A stretch of 45,509 nucleotides of DNA from Veterinaerplatzvirus T145P1. Shown here in pieces: positions 8,197-45,243 of the stretch; within the stretch, counting starts at the first letter, position 1, and every line of letters starts with the position of its first letter. A program made the position numbers and the translations under genes. The notes below the pieces were generated by a model, which saw only the letters and a program-made list of their open reading frames with translations, ran no database searches and was not told the origin of the DNA. The DNA lies in the sequence record OZ035793.1. One strand, written 5' to 3'.

Positions 8197-8587
8197 ATTA
8201 TCATTAGCGGCAAGGAAATTCGTCAATGATTTACTGGTAAGTGAATTTCCGGTCAGATATCCAGTTGCGTGGGAGAATGCTGCATTCACCCCTCCTGCGG
8301 ATGGATCAATCTGGCTTAAGTACGACTACACGGAAGTTGATACTGTAACCTACGGATTAAGCAGGAAGTGCAAATACTACGTAGGCATGGTGCAGATTTC
8401 TGTTTTCTTCAGCCCGGGCACTGGAGTTGATAAGCCTAGGCAAATCGCTAATCAATTGGCAGAATCTATCGTTGATGGTACAATGCTTGACAGCGGGACC
8501 ATTTATGAGTCTGGAGTTGTTAACCCAGTTATCAAATCCAGATCTGGGTGGTTTATCCCGGTTCGTTTTTATGTTCGTCTAGACTAA
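8186..8587 (+). CDS. tail completion/terminator protein (putative)
   Basis: Overlapping start with upstream gene; immediately precedes major tail protein. Confidence 0.35.
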   Translation: MQYELSLAARKFVNDLLVSEFPVRYPVAWENAAFTPPADGSIWLKYDYTEVDTVTYGLSRKCKYYVGMVQISVFFSPGTGVDKPRQIANQLAESIVDGTMLDSGTIYESGVVNPVIKSRSGWFIPVRFYVRLD

Positions 8588-8602
8588 CAAAAGGAAAAAT
8601 AC

Positions 8603-26770: not shown

Positions 26771-27697
26771 TTAGTCTAGTAATTCGCTCGCCTTGTATAT
26801 TCGCTTTCTTATTCCTGATTTGAAGTGGTTATCATTATTTGGCATTACAACATCAAGATTGCGATCGTCAGCAACGGCGAGTAAATCAAAATCGCTGCGA
26901 GTACAAGCGATGCGTAACTTGTAGTTTCTAAGCGCGTAAGCAACCATTTCCATGTTGTAACTGGAGTGGCAAACAAGCACACAGCGGTTCCCAGTAGCAA
27001 TGTGAACGCGATAGCCATCAATGAAATTATCGACCAGATAAGCGTACTCATCATCCTTAAAGGAACCAATAACAGAAACAGACTGGCGAGAATAATCTTT
27101 TGCAGCATAACTAACATCTCCCTCCTCATTGATAAACATTACATTGCACATCTCTTCTGATATGCCGTCACTATAAGCCATAAAGCACGGAACTGCGTGG
27201 ATTAATTCACCTGATTTCGTCCTGCCAACATCAAAACCGAACTCGCTATAGATACCCTCGTATGTACTGAGAGGAGTTGATTCTACTCTTTCCGTCCTTT
27301 CCATTATCTCTAAGCATCTTTCGTGATCAATCTGAGCGCCCATTTTGTATGGTGATGTTCTTGAAGCTCTTTTGTTTGCTTTTGATATAACCTCTACTGG
27401 AACGAGATTCAGCCAATCACCAAGCGTATCTATTGTTTCACTATAACTCATTCCAGAACACTTCATTACCCAACCAACACCAGAATCATTTCCACACTGG
27501 TTGCATATTGCTGCGCCATTTCCCTTTTCTTGACCTAACTCATCAGTGAAGCGAAACCTATCCTTGCCAAAGCAGTAAGGGCACGGACCATGTTTCTTGC
27601 TGAGATTCTCCTTTGTCCATCCAAGATGCGATGAGTAGAACTCACTCCACATCCCTTTCATCTTGGCTATCACTTCGTTCTTATCATGGTGACTCAT
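26771..27697 (-). CDS. DNA primase (zinc-binding, putative)
   Basis: Start trimmed to ATG 27697 (RBS ggagg); CPYC...CNQC zinc-ribbon near N-terminus; followed by intrinsic terminator. Confidence 0.6.
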   Translation of the reverse strand: MSHHDKNEVIAKMKGMWSEFYSSHLGWTKENLSKKHGPCPYCFGKDRFRFTDELGQEKGNGAAICNQCGNDSGVGWVMKCSGMSYSETIDTLGDWLNLVPVEVISKANKRASRTSPYKMGAQIDHERCLEIMERTERVESTPLSTYEGIYSEFGFDVGRTKSGELIHAVPCFMAYSDGISEEMCNVMFINEEGDVSYAAKDYSRQSVSVIGSFKDDEYAYLVDNFIDGYRVHIATGNRCVLVCHSSYNMEMVAYALRNYKLRIACTRSDFDLLAVADDRNLDVVMPNNDNHFKSGIRKRIYKASELLD

Positions 27698-27752
27698 AAT
27701 TACCTCCATAAACAATAAAGGCACTATACATAATGCAAAGTGCCATTGTTTA

Positions 27753-28232
27753 TCAAATCGTGCTGTTTTGCTCTTTCTTCTTTTGGTTCTCTAATTTTAT
27801 CTTGCGCCATGAACGACACTCTGGCTTAGTGGCTAATTCAGCCTCAGTGACGACTCGCAGCATATGGCGCTTTTTGCACCGAAGTGTCAGCGGTTTCCCG
27901 TTGCCGTCGAATTGCAGGTCTGGTCGGCAGAATGTAGCGCGAAAACCTTCTCCATTTCGCTTATAGTAGTTGTGAGAAAGTTGAGCCCCACGCGCAGAAA
28001 TCATACCGCGCTTAAACCATTCTTCTACAGCCTGTGGTGTTACCTTTAACTGCTTTGCGATATTCGCCTTTGTGCCGAAGAAATCAAGAACTATCTCTAG
28101 CCGCGCGCGTAGCCCGGCTCTTACTTCATCTTTTAAAACATAGTAGCCTGAAGGTCGTTTACGTTGCTTTTTGTCTTCGGTGCGGATGGTTCCGTTATTG
28201 CCGTTAATTGTTCGCTTGTCGACTGTATTCAT
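27753..28232 (-). CDS. helix-turn-helix DNA-binding protein (candidate transcription regulator)
   Basis: Basic 159 aa protein with HTH-like segment KANIAKQLKVTPQAVEEWFKRG; first gene of the - strand operon, next to divergent promoters. Confidence 0.5.
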   Translation of the reverse strand: MNTVDKRTINGNNGTIRTEDKKQRKRPSGYYVLKDEVRAGLRARLEIVLDFFGTKANIAKQLKVTPQAVEEWFKRGMISARGAQLSHNYYKRNGEGFRATFCRPDLQFDGNGKPLTLRCKKRHMLRVVTEAELATKPECRSWRKIKLENQKKKEQNSTI

Positions 28233-28243
28233 TTCATTACCTC

Positions 28244-28288
28244 AATAGCATTTTTTGTTAAAAGTCATCCTGATTTGATGGTATCATT
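28244..28288 (+). promoter_or_regulatory. composite promoter element (helicase operon)
   Basis: AATAGCATTTTTTGTTAAAA then about 22 bp to ATCATT. Confidence 0.45.
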
Positions 28289-28314
28289 GTACTCAATTAA
28301 ACGCTACAAGACAA
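28286..28314 (-). promoter_or_regulatory. sigma70-like promoter for the HTH-primase-tailspike operon
   Basis: - strand TTGTCT-17-TACAAT, overlapping face-to-face with the + strand helicase promoter. Confidence 0.45.
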
Positions 28315-28333
28315 TTTTTATAGGAATTTAGAT

Positions 28334-30328
28334 ATGTTGCCTATCGAGAAGCTGGTTGCAAATTTCGATAAAGAAAGAATCAAACAGATTCAGAAAGACT
28401 ATCAGTTTGGAGAGATAACCCCTTACGAATTCCAGTGCGTGACATTTGATGCAATCGGAAAGGCTATTGGCAAGTACGAGGCACCATTTATCGCAGACCT
28501 TTCAGTATCTGCGGGTAAGACAATCATTCTTGCCATGATTGGTAAGCGCATGGAGCAGCTTGGGCTTCCCTATATGGTTCTCTCTCGCCAGTCAGAGATT
28601 ATCAGCCAGAACTCAGAAGAGCTTCGTAATTTCGGCATACGTAATAGCGTCTATTGCGCTGGCCTTAACGTCAAATCAGTTTACTACCCAACTATAGTGG
28701 CCAGTGAGGGTACGGCAGCCAACGGCTTGTTTAAGGGGCTTGGTGACTATGTTCCGGCAGTTATCGCTATAGATGAGTGTCACATGGTCGATCACATGGA
28801 TATCGTGGAGGCTGAAGAGAATGAAGAAACATTTGAGCAAATGAGCACAAAGAAAGGCGATATGGTTTTTAAGGATGGCGTAAACACAGGATTGCTTGGT
28901 ACTGGTCGTGCGCAGTACACGCTAATTATCACCGAGATGAAACGTCGTTGTCGTGAGAAGTACGGGCGTGAGCTTCGTATATTCGGTCTTACTGGCAGCC
29001 CGTATCGTAACAACGATCATATCGTCGTTAGCAACCCAAACATCCGTGGATTCTGGCGCAAAACAGTGATTCAGGTGCCAACAAATTATCTGGTTGATTT
29101 GGGCTTCGTTGTTCCTACTGTTTATGGTGAAGTTGGTGACCTGGGTTATGACCTTAGTGAGTTTGCGCCAGACGGAAGCGATGGCGTTAAAGACTTCAGC
29201 AAGAAAGAAATGGATGCAATGGCTGCAAAGATTCACGACAACCAATCAATGACCCAAAAGATAATGGGTTTTGTTGTGAAAATACTCGAGACTCGTAACG
29301 CTGCATTGGTAACATGCGCTGGCAAACTCCATTGTGATGAGGCTGCTGCGGCACTACCAGATGGATACCCTTACGCCATCATCACAGACTCTACGGGAGA
29401 GAGGAAGCGCAGGGAGATTCTGGCTGATTGCCAGACAGGTAAGTACAAAATAATATTCCAGATTGGTTGTCTTACTACGGGCGTAAACCAGCCGCTGTGG
29501 GATACTAGCGTCATACTACGCAAGATTGGCAGCCTAACGCTTATGATTCAGCTTCTTGGTAGGGGGATGCGCAAACTTAAGAGATCTCATATTGATGCTG
29601 GTTTTCATAAAGAAGATCACCTTGTGCTGGATTTTGCTGGCGCACTTGATGATATGGCTGAGCTTTACTTTGACCCAATTATTGAAGAGATTCAGGCTGA
29701 GAAGTTTAAATCCTCAAGAAAAGGTGGCGATGAGGTTCGTCAGTGTCCGCAATGTGGATATGAAAATTCCCCATTCGCTCGTCGCTGTAGCAATAAGATT
29801 GATGGCGTTAGATGCGATCACTTCTTTCAGTTCACAATTTGCGAAGACATTACCGACGCGCAAACTAAATCGGTAATTAAAAAGGGTTGTGGCGCTCGCA
29901 ATGACATAGCAGCAAAGGTTTGCAGGGAATGCGGCGAGATGCTTAAAGACCCAAATGCTAACCTGACTGGCAAAATGTATCGTCGTGGTGATTACCTTCG
30001 TGTTTATGATTTTCAAGTTGGGTTAAGTAAGAATCAGACAGGCATTGTAGTTAAGTACAATATAATGGCTCATAACGGAGAGAGATTTAACGCTTGGGAG
30101 TTCTTTAATCCAGAATCAGACCATCGAGTTTGCAGTGTGCTCTGGAAGAACTTTTGCTTAGCTCATATTGAGAATCGCACGGAAGCGGCACGAATTGGCA
30201 GGCTTAAAAATGCCAGAATGATTATGACTAACGTAGATAAGTTCCGTGCGCCAGTTCAGGTTACGCATCGCCGGAATGCAAAAGGAAAGGACGTGATAGC
30301 GTTTAAGAATTTTGGAGAATTATTATGA
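28334..30328 (+). CDS. SF2 DNA helicase with C-terminal zinc ribbons
   Basis: Walker A SAGKT, DExH-like DECH motif, C-terminal CxxC pairs. Confidence 0.8.
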   Translation: MLPIEKLVANFDKERIKQIQKDYQFGEITPYEFQCVTFDAIGKAIGKYEAPFIADLSVSAGKTIILAMIGKRMEQLGLPYMVLSRQSEIISQNSEELRNFGIRNSVYCAGLNVKSVYYPTIVASEGTAANGLFKGLGDYVPAVIAIDECHMVDHMDIVEAEENEETFEQMSTKKGDMVFKDGVNTGLLGTGRAQYTLIITEMKRRCREKYGRELRIFGLTGSPYRNNDHIVVSNPNIRGFWRKTVIQVPTNYLVDLGFVVPTVYGEVGDLGYDLSEFAPDGSDGVKDFSKKEMDAMAAKIHDNQSMTQKIMGFVVKILETRNAALVTCAGKLHCDEAAAALPDGYPYAIITDSTGERKRREILADCQTGKYKIIFQIGCLTTGVNQPLWDTSVILRKIGSLTLMIQLLGRGMRKLKRSHIDAGFHKEDHLVLDFAGALDDMAELYFDPIIEEIQAEKFKSSRKGGDEVRQCPQCGYENSPFARRCSNKIDGVRCDHFFQFTICEDITDAQTKSVIKKGCGARNDIAAKVCRECGEMLKDPNANLTGKMYRRGDYLRVYDFQVGLSKNQTGIVVKYNIMAHNGERFNAWEFFNPESDHRVCSVLWKNFCLAHIENRTEAARIGRLKNARMIMTNVDKFRAPVQVTHRRNAKGKDVIAFKNFGELL

Positions 30329-34985: not shown

Positions 34986-35350
34986 TAGTGTGCGTAGCTT
35001 TATCTGGATGTTCGGCAACTGATGCACTGACTGGATTGATTGGAAGCAAGCCGGAAGTTACAGCTCAGGCCGGGGCTGAGAACAACAAGGTTGGCGTTGG
35101 GTTAACGAATAAGGTCGATTCCAGCAGCTCCAGTGAAGCCACGGTTAAAGATTCTAAAGTTGGGTCACTTGATAGCTCAAGCGGGAAAAAGACTGCTGAC
35201 AACTCGATTAAGGCATCTACAATCACTGCCGAAAAGATTGAGATTACCAACAACGACTCATCCGCGCCTCCATGGATTGTAATGGGAGCTATGGGGTTGC
35301 TGTTTTTTGTTCCACTTACCGCAATCTTAAGACGCAAAAAAGCCTCCTAA
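34961..35350 (+). CDS. unimolecular spanin (u-spanin, T1 gp11-like architecture)
   Basis: N-terminal lipobox LSGC, Ser-rich periplasmic segment and C-terminal TMD followed by RRKK; overlaps endolysin 3' end. Confidence 0.7.
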   Translation: MFKWIAALVVCVALSGCSATDALTGLIGSKPEVTAQAGAENNKVGVGLTNKVDSSSSSEATVKDSKVGSLDSSSGKKTADNSIKASTITAEKIEITNNDSSAPPWIVMGAMGLLFFVPLTAILRRKKAS

Positions 35351-35366
35351 TGGAGGCTATATTTTT
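35336..35366. terminator. bidirectional intrinsic terminator after lysis cassette
   Basis: A5-AGCCTCC-taat-GGAGGCT-ATATTTTT; contains the spanin stop codon. Confidence 0.65.
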
Positions 35367-39067: not shown

Positions 39068-39247
39068 TCAAATAAATGGCAAGCATTCGACGCAGCCAAG
39101 CCCATCACAGCACATGAATTCATCTTCTGACTGGAATTGCTTTGCTAAATCAATGTCTAGCCTTCCGCTCACCACAAGGTCGGTGTAATCTTCATTAAGC
39201 CCAATCAGTGCGCACTCGTTACGTAACTCATCTTTATTCTTTTTCAT
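39068..39247 (-). CDS. hypothetical Cys-rich small protein (59 aa)
   Basis: Not in ORF track; ATGA overlap with upstream gene; C-terminal CCDGLGCVEC. Confidence 0.4.
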   Translation of the reverse strand: MKKNKDELRNECALIGLNEDYTDLVVSGRLDIDLAKQFQSEDEFMCCDGLGCVECLPFI

Positions 39248-39411
39248 TTATCCTGGCCTTTTAAATTATAACGCTCTCTCAGAACTTCAACCCATTCTTG
39301 CGCGTCATTCTCTCTCATGAAGAAACTTAAATTTGGGTACTTGTGAAACCCTTTAAGTTCAACTACCCAATGACCACCTTCGTAACTATAACTAACTTTC
39401 TTCTCTGTCAT
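39244..39411 (-). CDS. hypothetical small protein (55 aa)
   Basis: Not in ORF track; first ORF after the long - strand leader. Confidence 0.4.
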   Translation of the reverse strand: MTEKKVSYSYEGGHWVVELKGFHKYPNLSFFMRENDAQEWVEVLRERYNLKGQDK

Positions 39412-39622
39412 TTTGTTACCTTTTGAGTTTTTTTATTATCGACATCTCTTCAACGTACTCGCTACAACTCGGGATTTTACTCCCGGCCCGGCATCCTAAC
39501 AAAAGGACCCGATCGGCGCTTTGGTGGGTGAGGTAACGCTTCCTCACATTGCGCGGTAGTATTTACTCCTTTTGGTCTCTTTCGAGAGTGACTCAGAGTC
39601 TGCTACCGTGTCGATGAGATTA

Positions 39623-39668
39623 AGTATACGCATAGTTAGCCACACTGTCTTTAGCAAAAAGTGCTATT
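39623..39668 (-). promoter_or_regulatory. composite promoter element (- strand, start of long leader)
   Basis: - strand AATAGCACTTTTTGCTAAAG, 23 bp, TATACT, then TCATCGACACGG. Confidence 0.45.
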
Positions 39669-39682
39669 CGTTAGATTTATGT

Positions 39683-39777
39683 ATTGTTGCAGATATTGCA
39701 ATGATTCACTTGATTATTGCACATACAGCAATATTGCTTCCGATGCAATGATGTTTTTGATTGTTGCGAAAAGTGAA
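39683..39777. repeat. nested direct repeats around a central dyad (candidate iteron/operator array)
   Basis: ATTGTTGC at both ends, TGCAATGAT twice inside, central perfect palindrome GCAATATTGC. Confidence 0.6.
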
Positions 39778-39952
39778 ATTAAGTGGTGAGTGAGTGAATG
39801 AAAGATGGATGGACTACCATACAAGTTGATTTTTACCAATCTATGGGAGCCTCACGGATATACGCGTATCCTCCGTATACTCAGTGTCGTCACAAAAGTT
39901 AGTGACCACTAACCTACGTTTTTACGCGATATATACACACGATATACAATAT

Positions 39953-40021
39953 AATATCTATATATATCAACCTTTTACTTTATTATTATTATTATTATTA
40001 TATATATGTATACTGTGTATA
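39953..40021. repeat. AT-rich long direct repeat copy B with (TTA)7 tract
   Basis: Same sequence as 20691-20750 except the microsatellite length and 3 substitutions. Confidence 0.85.
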
Positions 40022-40227
40022 CCGGTAATTGGTGAGATTATTGATATGTTCCGCGCAGATATTCTGACACCTGTCAGAAATGGATGGCATTGTAGGAATA
40101 AAAGGCACATATATAGGGAATGGCTTCAAAAATCTGTACACATCGGATACGGCACATTTACAACCAGCAATGGAGGGGCCTCTGGAGGTAAAAAGCGTAT
40201 CCATGATAAAATAGACGAAAATATACA

Positions 40228-40256
40228 TTGACCGACACGTAAATAGATGGCAATAT
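40228..40256 (+). promoter_or_regulatory. sigma70-like promoter TTGACC-17-CAATAT
   Basis: Canonical spacing; leader CACTGAAACGAAG; upstream of gene 40297. Confidence 0.5.
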
Positions 40257-40296
40257 AGCAGTCACTGAAACGAAGTAAAACAAACGAGGTATCAAC

Positions 40297-40845
40297 ATGC
40301 AGAAAGTAACACTAGGTGAAGTTATCCGTGAGATGGTGCGCAACGCGATGGTGTCCGAGAGTGGTGAGTTTAAAGTTCCGGTTAGCCAGATATTCAAACT
40401 GGTTCGAGGCAAGGAATACCCTGAAATGGTGTATGACGAAGAGACTAGTGAGATCCTCAACCTGGCAGATAGGGCGATGCCGGAACTAAAGAACTCATAC
40501 ATCTATAACACAGTGTCGAGAATGACAGAGCTTCGCGATGCTAATAAGCGAGCGAGATATAAGTTCATCTGGATTGATGATGACGGAGAGCAAACAAGGC
40601 CCGGTAGCTTCGACGGTGATGGCGCTGATAAATACCTGGTCATATACATTGAGAACGGCGCGCACTGGACTGGGAGTCGCGAAAAGAAAAAGCAGGAAGC
40701 GGAGAAAGAGGCGGCTATCATTGAAAAGTTCAAGTCTAGACTGCTCAAGCTGTCACCAAGTGTTGCTGGCTTGGAAGGTGAAGAACTTAAGGGCGCTGTT
40801 ACAATGATTAATGCTTATCAGGAAATGATTAAGGAGACTAAGTAG
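40297..40845 (+). CDS. hypothetical protein
   Basis: 182 aa; RBS gagg; upstream sigma70-like promoter TTGACC-17-CAATAT at 40228-40256. Confidence 0.55.
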   Translation: MQKVTLGEVIREMVRNAMVSESGEFKVPVSQIFKLVRGKEYPEMVYDEETSEILNLADRAMPELKNSYIYNTVSRMTELRDANKRARYKFIWIDDDGEQTRPGSFDGDGADKYLVIYIENGAHWTGSREKKKQEAEKEAAIIEKFKSRLLKLSPSVAGLEGEELKGAVTMINAYQEMIKETK

Positions 40846-45150: not shown

Positions 45151-45227
45151 GGCTCGAGTGGCGAAAGTGGATATCGCAAGAGACTTCTAATCTCTAGATT
45201 GCTGGTTCGAATCCAGCCTCGAGCGCC
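45151..45227 (+). tRNA. tRNA-Arg (anticodon UCU) with encoded CCA
   Basis: Hand-folded cloverleaf: 7-bp acceptor GCTCGAG/CTCGAGC, U8, 4-bp D stem GCGA/TCGC, D loop with GG, 5-bp anticodon stem AGAGA/TCTCT, loop CTTCTAA, 5-nt variable loop, T arm GCTGG-TTCGAAT-CCAGC, discriminator G, CCA. Confidence 0.85.
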
Positions 45228-45243
45228 AATCAAGGAGTTCATT

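Follow-up and report, generated by a model that had tools for sequence, protein, structure and literature searches.

The window analysed here, a 45,509-nt stretch of DNA from Veterinaerplatzvirus T145P1 (OZ035793.1), is the essentially complete genome of a T1-like siphovirus whose relatives belong to the Drexlerviridae, subfamily Braunvirinae. The leader under study lies in a divergent intergenic region of 885 bp (39412-40296). To the left, a minus-strand operon of small genes starts at 39411, includes a gene for a 527-aa DUF3987-type protein and ends at a bidirectional terminator at 35341-35358; to the right, plus-strand genes begin at 40297, the first encoding a DUF7174 protein. The middle of the intergenic region is an AT-rich low-complexity tract with (AAT)n and (TA)n runs (39940-40030). 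The sole Rfam or ARAGORN match in the genome is a plus-strand tRNA-Arg with anticodon TCT (45152-45228), which is also the one gathering-level match of the whole window to Rfam 15 (tRNA, 45152-45225).

A consensus promoter scan of the minus strand agreed with the promoter originally proposed at 39623-39668: a sigma-70-like -35 hexamer, AAGACA (39651-39646), is followed after a 17-nt spacer by the -10 hexamer TATACT (39628-39623). The -35 hexamer is part of a conserved upstream promoter box, AATAGCACTTTTTGCTAAAGACA (39646-39668, minus strand), which has one exact copy in the whole window where none is expected by chance. The promoter block is conserved as well, with the 35 nt at 39646-39680 being 97-100% identical across about 40 Braunvirinae phage records (blastn), and the same -35/17 nt/-10 geometry is present in relatives that lack the RNA described below. 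From this geometry, transcription is predicted to start near 39616 (+/-2). Rtp-like reference genomes (Rtp, ACG-M12 and Rogue1) have their record ends just upstream of the promoter box, and for this reason the intergenic region may also hold a packaging start or an origin.

The roughly 210 nt between the promoter and the first ATG at 39411 are laid out as the original prediction described, and that ATG is the start of a conserved gene. As had also been claimed, neither strand has an open reading frame of 60 aa or more that overlaps 39412-39622; the longest are 59 aa on the plus strand and 43 and 37 aa on the minus strand. The structured span itself is shorter than 39412-39622. It corresponds to a domain at 39438-39615, and the remaining 39412-39437 is an A-rich, poorly conserved and mostly unpaired linker that carries the Shine-Dalgarno sequence AAAAGG (39424-39419).

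Behind the linker lies a minus-strand gene for a 55-aa protein (39244-39411), conserved and always next to the RNA, with products of 49-58 aa across loci. The protein belongs to no Pfam or PHROG family, and its own family amounts to a handful of clusters among 5.8 billion proteins and likewise among 1.84 billion representatives. Because a hydrophobic pattern is conserved and 17 positions are invariant in eight sequences, the sequence record indicates that this reading frame is a real gene. The predicted fold is beta-beta-beta-alpha (pLDDT 81), with no significant structural relatives and no recognisable RNA-binding fold; the protein is roughly charge-neutral rather than basic and has no arginine-rich motif. 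Its stop codon overlaps the start of the next gene (ATGA, 39244-39250), which is rtp74-like and encodes 59 aa (phrog_9053), and this overlap suggests that the inserted module is translationally coupled to the resident early operon. We found no minus-strand terminator between the RNA and the gene; from 39411 to 35358, the sole terminator-like site on that strand is a weak 5-bp match inside a large reading frame. With no terminator intervening, RNA and gene would form one transcript for which antitermination is unneeded.

Structure, strand and novelty of the RNA domain

Our homologue set comprises 18 loci with 12 distinct RNA sequences. By blastn, the leader is found in just nine phage records: T145P1 (three records), ACG-M12 (two records), vB_Ec-G8, SCS31, ECH1 and IMM-001. 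Further loci (L038-L042, L044 and L045) are contigs that carry a member of the small-protein family, with the RNA directly upstream in each, and one extra locus (L043) came from pattern scans of metagenomes. We derived a consensus from the first five sequences using RNAalifold and built on it a covariance model, R1, which scores 145-233 bits at every homologous locus.

In the consensus, nine minus-strand helices (P1-P9) form a multi-helix junction, and a 7-bp stem, P1 (AUCGACA/UGUCGAU; 39615-39609/39444-39438), closes the domain. Compensatory changes are seen in P1, P2 (39607-39601/39561-39555), P4 (39587-39584/39579-39576), P6 (39547-39542/39533-39528), P7 (39511-39504/39497-39489) and P8 (39488-39481/39474-39466). 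P3 (39599-39595/39569-39565), in which GACUC pairs with GGAGU, varies through G.U only. P5 (39554-39551/39519-39516) and P9 (39464-39460/39455-39451) are predicted helices, the former invariant and the latter varying by no more than a single C-G to U-G change and a single mismatch. The tetraloop of P4 (39583-39580) is always of the GNRA type, GAAA in most homologues and GCGA in L045. P7 and P8 (39481-39511) are twin hairpins with zero spacer; each has 3 bp, then a purine bulged out on the 3' side, then 5 bp and a loop of 6 nt. The two loops, U-rich in P7 (UUUUG) and A-rich in P8 (UAAAA), could kiss, and another possible pseudoknot would join CUUUUG in the P7 loop to CAAAAG in the internal loop of P3/P4.

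The original prediction had listed five consecutive stems, three of which are borne out by conservation or covariation: UCUC-GAAA-GAGA is P4, GUGAGG-aagcguua-CCUCAC is P6, and CGGGA-guaaaa-UCCCG is the apical part of P8. The other two are not conserved. The proposed GACUC-u-GAGUC hairpin would have a 1-nt loop and is broken in three homologues, its GACUC pairing with GGAGU instead (P3), and CCGAUCGG is a palindrome in T145P1 only, reading CCGAGCGG, CCUUGCGG, CCUCGCGG and CCUAGCGG elsewhere, at a position that belongs to the junction. Six helices (P1, P2, P3, P5, P7 and P9) lie beyond that earlier list.

Folded as a single sequence, the leader has a minimum free energy of -60.3 kcal/mol and a z score of -2.55, with 4 of 200 shuffles folding equally well or better. 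Since this z score is modest, the decisive test had to be comparative. In the 12-sequence alignment, which was fitted to the R1 model yet is nearly gap-free, standard pairs make up 97.3% of 636 pair cells, as against 36-42% in slid-partner controls. Both sides have changed in 17 of 53 pairs, as against 0-3 in the same controls, with the variation coming from few lineages (IMM-001/L042, L041, L043, L044 and L045) and shared ancestry inflating covariation counts of this kind. None of 500 shuffles reached the observed pair values. A naive scan returned many lineage-driven pseudo-covariations among column pairs outside the structure, and the slid controls still gave 0-3; because naive covariation is lineage-driven, the argument for structure rests on the contrast with the slid controls. 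A naive search for pseudoknot covariation was swamped by the same lineage effects. The stems are thus conserved in relatives, with compensatory changes across 12 distinct homologues; a lack of such conservation, which the original prediction had named as a refuting result, was looked for and did not occur. The segment of about 178 nt at 39438-39615 is almost certainly a genuine structured RNA domain on the minus strand.

Changes on one side of a P1-P9 pair all go to G.U when read on the minus strand, which would be A.C on the plus strand or in DNA. G.U cells number 66 and A.C cells 10 on the minus strand, and the helices are 97.5% paired when read as minus strand versus 87.0% as plus strand. 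The functional strand is the minus strand, in agreement with the orientation of the promoter and the gene. Counted by codon position in each frame, the variable sites are spread without periodicity (15/13/11, 13/11/15, 11/15/13), indels of +1, +1, +4 and -2 in L045 break the reading frame, and the annotated start codon of ACG-M12_0077 (51 aa) is missing in most homologues. Coding sequences have been annotated across the RNA at L001 147-302 (ACG-M12_0077), at L002 1736-1936 (EcG8_035) and at L003 100-246 and 191-355 (IMM-001), and the G8 gene annotation begins inside the RNA, not at the conserved ATG. Because periodicity is absent, indels break the frame and the start codon is not conserved, these annotations in ACG-M12, G8 and IMM-001 are probably spurious.

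That the element is no RNA at all, being instead a small coding gene, a DNA-level site or a chance structure, is extremely improbable. Such a reading could point to the ACG-M12_0077 and IMM-001 annotations, to a 43-aa GTG reading frame within the window sequence and to the plus strand, which folds about equally well in silico. Set against these are the unconserved start codon and frame, the frame-breaking indels, the absence of third-position bias, the one-sided changes that are all G.U on the minus strand, and the 17 compensatory pairs against 0-3 in controls. A plus-strand RNA, a DNA element and a coding gene were rejected on wobble asymmetry, indels and compensatory pairs, and coding, DNA-site and chance explanations are effectively excluded. 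Covariation, wobble asymmetry and the conserved promoter bear out the central proposal of the original prediction, an ORF-free structured leader on the minus strand as a candidate cis-regulatory RNA or sRNA.

Several known identities did not fit the domain. A CsrA sponge was rejected because in L041 the GGA in P7 has become GAA and the opposite strand has changed to compensate. P7 and P8 as mimics of tRNA anticodon loops were rejected as well, the covarying pairs leaving no 7-nt loop. No direct repeat families were found in 39380-39700, and a type III toxin-antitoxin antitoxin RNA or a CRISPR-like repeat RNA was rejected for want of tandem direct repeats there.

Searching Rfam 15 over 39400-39640 with E values up to 10 gave a sole match, to c4-a1b1, at 15.7 bits versus a threshold of 46.7. 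Pattern scans of IMG/VR returned no homologue, only chance matches to a GC-rich 16-mer (blastn check), and scans of GTDB genomes found nothing related to the RNA. A blastn search of E. coli genomes and plasmids revealed no similarity to the RNA, and thus no obvious host mimicry. R1 detected no diverged copy in the promoter-sharing relatives Rtp, JeanPiccard, BEK6, EC3a and 2725-N35 or in Escherichia phage ECO104 4-5-2. Orphan structured RNA motifs have been collected from phages and metagenomes by comparative genomics, including mining of IMG/VR (PMC10690425). Like such motifs and the Rfam "motif" families, the T145P1 RNA is conserved, covarying, ORF-free and directly upstream of a gene; unlike them, it is absent from Rfam 15 and, by pattern scans, from IMG/VR, the resource mined in that study. 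The RNA family is new in that it is in neither Rfam 15 nor IMG/VR, structured phage 5' leaders and non-coding RNA motifs being already known as a kind.

Constraint, linkage and mobility

Variable columns make up 21% of the RNA, as compared with 61% of the 55-aa coding sequence, 88% of the linker and 79% of the 100 nt upstream. The contrast is sharpest at locus L044, where the promoter is unrelated, the protein shares 43% identity with that of the window, and the RNA is 94.5% identical to that of T145P1 (comparator record 99.7% identical to the window). Megablast homology of L044 to T145P1, G8 and ACG-M12 is confined to 1791-1971/1972, that is, from P1 through the end of the 184-nt model. These patterns indicate that the RNA sequence, loops and junctions included, is under strong constraint.

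Linkage of the RNA to the small gene is strict. A tblastn search with two divergent members of the protein family returned exactly the same nine phage records as the RNA, all eight metagenomic or SRA loci found via the protein or the RNA carry both (8/8), and there are no exceptions among the 18 loci. JeanPiccard, BEK6 and EC3a share the promoter and the initial transcribed sequence (CTCATCAA...; TAnCTCATCAA...), have neither the RNA nor the small gene, and reach the next early gene after a leader of about 15-60 nt. The T145P1 leader is therefore unusual, as first suggested, in that close relatives with the same promoter have a short leader and no element. At L044, the sequence downstream is about 87% identical to ECO104 4-5-2, a 43-kb phage that has a gene for an RNA polymerase of the single-subunit T7 type (PF00940, E = 2e-90) and is itself without the module. 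Sequence comparison thus shows the RNA and the small gene to be an accessory two-part module that is mobile between phages. With its presence both at L044 and in Braunvirinae, the module lies downstream of strong host-type early promoters in two phage backbones that are unrelated to each other.

Two other phages have leaders of comparable layout. In Rtp (NC_007603, L033), the conserved promoter box occurs twice, at 58-80 and 299-320, and 150-200 nt free of annotated genes lie downstream of each copy, ahead of rtp75. These Rtp leaders are unrelated to the T145P1 RNA, and their folds do not surpass those of shuffled sequences (z = +1.19 and -0.20). In ECO104 4-5-2 (OR844702.1, L046/L048), an early promoter, aaatagttgTTGACTtccctgatttaagtagtTATAnn, is repeated (L046, about 1826-1862 and about 2143-2179), and the second copy precedes an ORF-free leader of about 200 nt (2183-2384) and a 33-aa hydrophobic reading frame. 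This leader starts ACATAGCACGG, resembling the start of the L044 RNA, ACATCGGCACGG. UGCAUGU at 2351-2357 is able to pair with its 5' end, which makes the leader a candidate for a further 5'-closed RNA domain. Parts of it are found three times in its own genome and in the Autographiviridae phage PAS7 (blastn), its MFE z score is -1.45, and R1 gave no match.

Candidate roles of the leader RNA

The position of P1 relative to the promoter is nearly fixed. The gap from the end of the -10 hexamer to the first base of P1 is 6-7 nt in three promoter contexts: the window type (TATACT-TAATCTC-AUCGACA), L045 (AAGACA-17-TATTAT; TATTAT-TTAACAC-AUGGAAA) and L044 (TTGACT-17-TACATT; TACATT-ACATAC-AUCGGCA). 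This spacing, shared by all three, would place P1 at the 5' end of the transcript, beginning at +1 to +3 by promoter geometry.

We favour, tentatively and with confidence somewhat short of even, a reading in which this new RNA and its gene form a module that works through a cis-acting, 5'-terminal leader. Host RNA polymerase would make a leftward early transcript from the promoter at 39623-39668, with the RNA at its extreme 5' end; insertion would have placed the module between an early promoter and the early genes already resident there, both in some Braunvirinae phages and in at least one contig that has a T7-type phage as a relative. The RNA would then serve the mRNA of the small gene in cis, as its dedicated leader. 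By pairing the triphosphate end, P1 may shield the message from 5'-end-dependent decay, and a specific partner, which could be a factor of the host or the protein of the module itself, may bind the invariant junctions and loops. The bound partner would set the amount and timing of the small protein and of the translationally coupled genes behind it. We rank this reading first. It accounts for why RNA and gene are strictly adjacent, co-transcribed and mobile together, and for the flush position of the 5' end. Counting against it, the Shine-Dalgarno sequence sits in an open linker in most folds, the linker is unconserved and no expression platform is conserved; a plain stabilising 5' hairpin needs neither 178 nt nor about 80% invariant positions; and autoregulation by the module's own product fits poorly with a charge-neutral protein without an RNA-binding fold. 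The strict linkage and independent folding would fit a stable RNA working with the protein equally well.

Such a stable, trans-acting non-coding RNA, possibly acting with the 55-aa protein, is the main rival to the cis leader, and we consider it unlikely though worth serious attention. Cleavage of the transcript within the A/U-rich linker, for instance by RNase E, would release an RNA of about 180 nt with P1-protected ends that acts on a host target very early, in take-over or counter-defence; we regard this course of events as doubtful to the same degree. An unconserved, A/U-rich, single-stranded linker sets the independently folding domain apart from the gene, conservation of the domain far exceeds that of the protein next to it and breaks off abruptly at helix boundaries, and the domain is transcribed first behind strong early promoters in two unrelated phage backbones. 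Its accessory, patchy distribution is that of counter-defence genes, and it always occurs together with one small protein family. A trans-acting RNA explains the extreme conservation and the independent fold at least as well as a cis leader does. Arguing the other way, a terminator or defined 3' end is absent, no similarity to E. coli chromosomes, plasmids or Rfam suggests mimicry, and the protein is neither basic nor matched to an RNA-binding fold. The best complementarity to other phage transcripts is 12 nt, with about one such match expected by chance. This match is a perfect complement of the P7 loop region (UCCUUUUGUUAG) in plus-strand RNA at 8584-8595, and because about one is expected by chance it is probably meaningless. 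A bolder form of the idea, which we think improbable, is a new class of phage RNA effector: a compact RNA of about 180 nt, produced earlier than translation of any phage protein could begin, would bind a conserved component of the host and neutralise or redirect it. It would do so by itself or together with the 55-aa protein, the two forming a cassette exchanged between Drexlerviridae and T7-like phages. Its target could be a defence sensor, a nuclease, or a part of the translation or transcription machinery.

The linker is A/U-rich, 23-33 nt long in the homologues and present before the protein gene at all 18 loci, and in the MFE folds of 10 of 11 homologues it is unpaired with the RNA domain; in the exception, L043, a GAGAGG box pairs with CCUC in the P5/P7 junction. 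The Shine-Dalgarno region has a mean P(unpaired) of 0.53-0.62 in 10 of 11 homologues and otherwise pairs locally with the first codons. No conserved expression platform that sequesters the Shine-Dalgarno sequence was found in the folds of 11 homologues. A riboswitch, that is, a small-molecule aptamer controlling the small gene, would account for the aptamer-like covarying fold, in which P1 closes a junction with invariant nucleotides directly upstream of a start codon, and CCUUUUG in P7 can, as read from the sequence, pair with the purine-rich Shine-Dalgarno sequence (CAAAAGG in T145P1). We nevertheless judge a riboswitch quite improbable: there is no intrinsic terminator, the Shine-Dalgarno sequence is mostly open without a conserved alternative pairing, the linker varies in sequence and length, the downstream gene encodes a 49-58-aa protein and not a metabolic or transport function, known classes are unmatched, and the family is limited to a handful of coliphages.

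The early-operon setting also recalls RNAs that act on RNA polymerase. In phage lambda, a structured ORF-free leader of about 200 nt that includes nutL separates the early promoter PL from the small regulator gene N, and the put RNAs of HK022 are cis-acting antitermination and anti-pausing RNAs with two abutting stem-loops that modify RNA polymerase. The T145P1 leader shares with the lambda system an early promoter for host polymerase, an ORF-free leader of about 200 nt, a small protein gene heading the early operon and a short hairpin with a GNRA-type loop. It differs in having no boxA/boxB match, no arginine-rich motif and an unrelated protein; here there are also no downstream terminators to overcome, and a nine-helix junction sits flush with the 5' end. 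Like put, the element is a promoter-proximal, protein-independent RNA in an early operon with abutting stem-loops (P7/P8); it differs in being much larger, in having no terminator requirement, in its link to one small gene and in showing neither sequence nor structural likeness to the HK022 immunity region. That it is a put-like or nut-type cis element acting on RNA polymerase seems to us very improbable. Its promoter-proximal position in an early operon would suit such an element, and the twin hairpins P7/P8 are reminiscent of the put stem-loops, a comparison that serves only as a lead. Minus-strand terminators are absent up to the operon end at 35341-35358, bar the weak 5-bp match in a reading frame, and relatives run the same operon without the RNA. 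With filters off, R1 reached at best 8.4 bits in the HK022 immunity region (27600-30100), a single-hairpin fragment. The small protein has no arginine-rich motif, and linkage to one gene would be left unexplained.

The element also has something in common with the c4 and CI immunity RNAs of phages P1/P7 and P4, structured RNAs derived from the 5' part of a transcript shared with the genes behind. It differs from them in that its Rfam c4-a1b1 score (15.7 bits vs 46.7) is at chance level and the phages carrying the T145P1-type RNA are virulent. A search for complementarity of the RNA to downstream ribosome-binding sites, as in c4/CI, gave no conserved match.

In E. coli, 5'-terminal stem-loops such as that of the ompA leader stabilise mRNAs. 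If the start predicted from promoter geometry is right, the T145P1 leader would resemble these elements in having a base-paired 5' end a few nucleotides from that start; it differs in that they are single hairpins that need no sequence conservation, as opposed to 178 nt with about 80% invariant positions here. A non-specific 5' stabiliser, for which any stable 5'-terminal structure would suffice, would match the known effect of such stem-loops in E. coli as well as the position of P1, which begins no more than about 3 nt from the predicted 5' end whichever of the three promoter contexts is considered. We hold it to be decidedly improbable: the invariant positions include loops and junctions, and an RNA that stays about 94% identical while its flanks are unrelated exceeds the needs of a generic hairpin. 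The classical riboswitch, the put/nut-like modifier and the generic stabiliser are thus each weakened by specific tests.

To our knowledge, phage-encoded structured RNAs with known roles are very few, and almost none have been described for T1-like phages. The complexity and conservation of the T145P1 RNA, with nine helices and about 80% invariant positions, are of ribozyme or riboswitch grade. It is better conserved than its partner protein, obligately paired with that tiny protein and shared across phage families, and its predicted position is exactly at the 5' end of the first early transcript, a pattern that marks strong sequence-specific selection on an element that would act in the first minutes of infection. 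The finding also corrects database annotation, given that the ACG-M12, G8 and IMM-001 coding sequences overlapping the element are probably spurious. The module is about 370 bp long and missing from close relatives, which makes it genetically tractable, and it could reveal either a new form of control of early phage gene expression or an RNA-based device for host manipulation or counter-defence.
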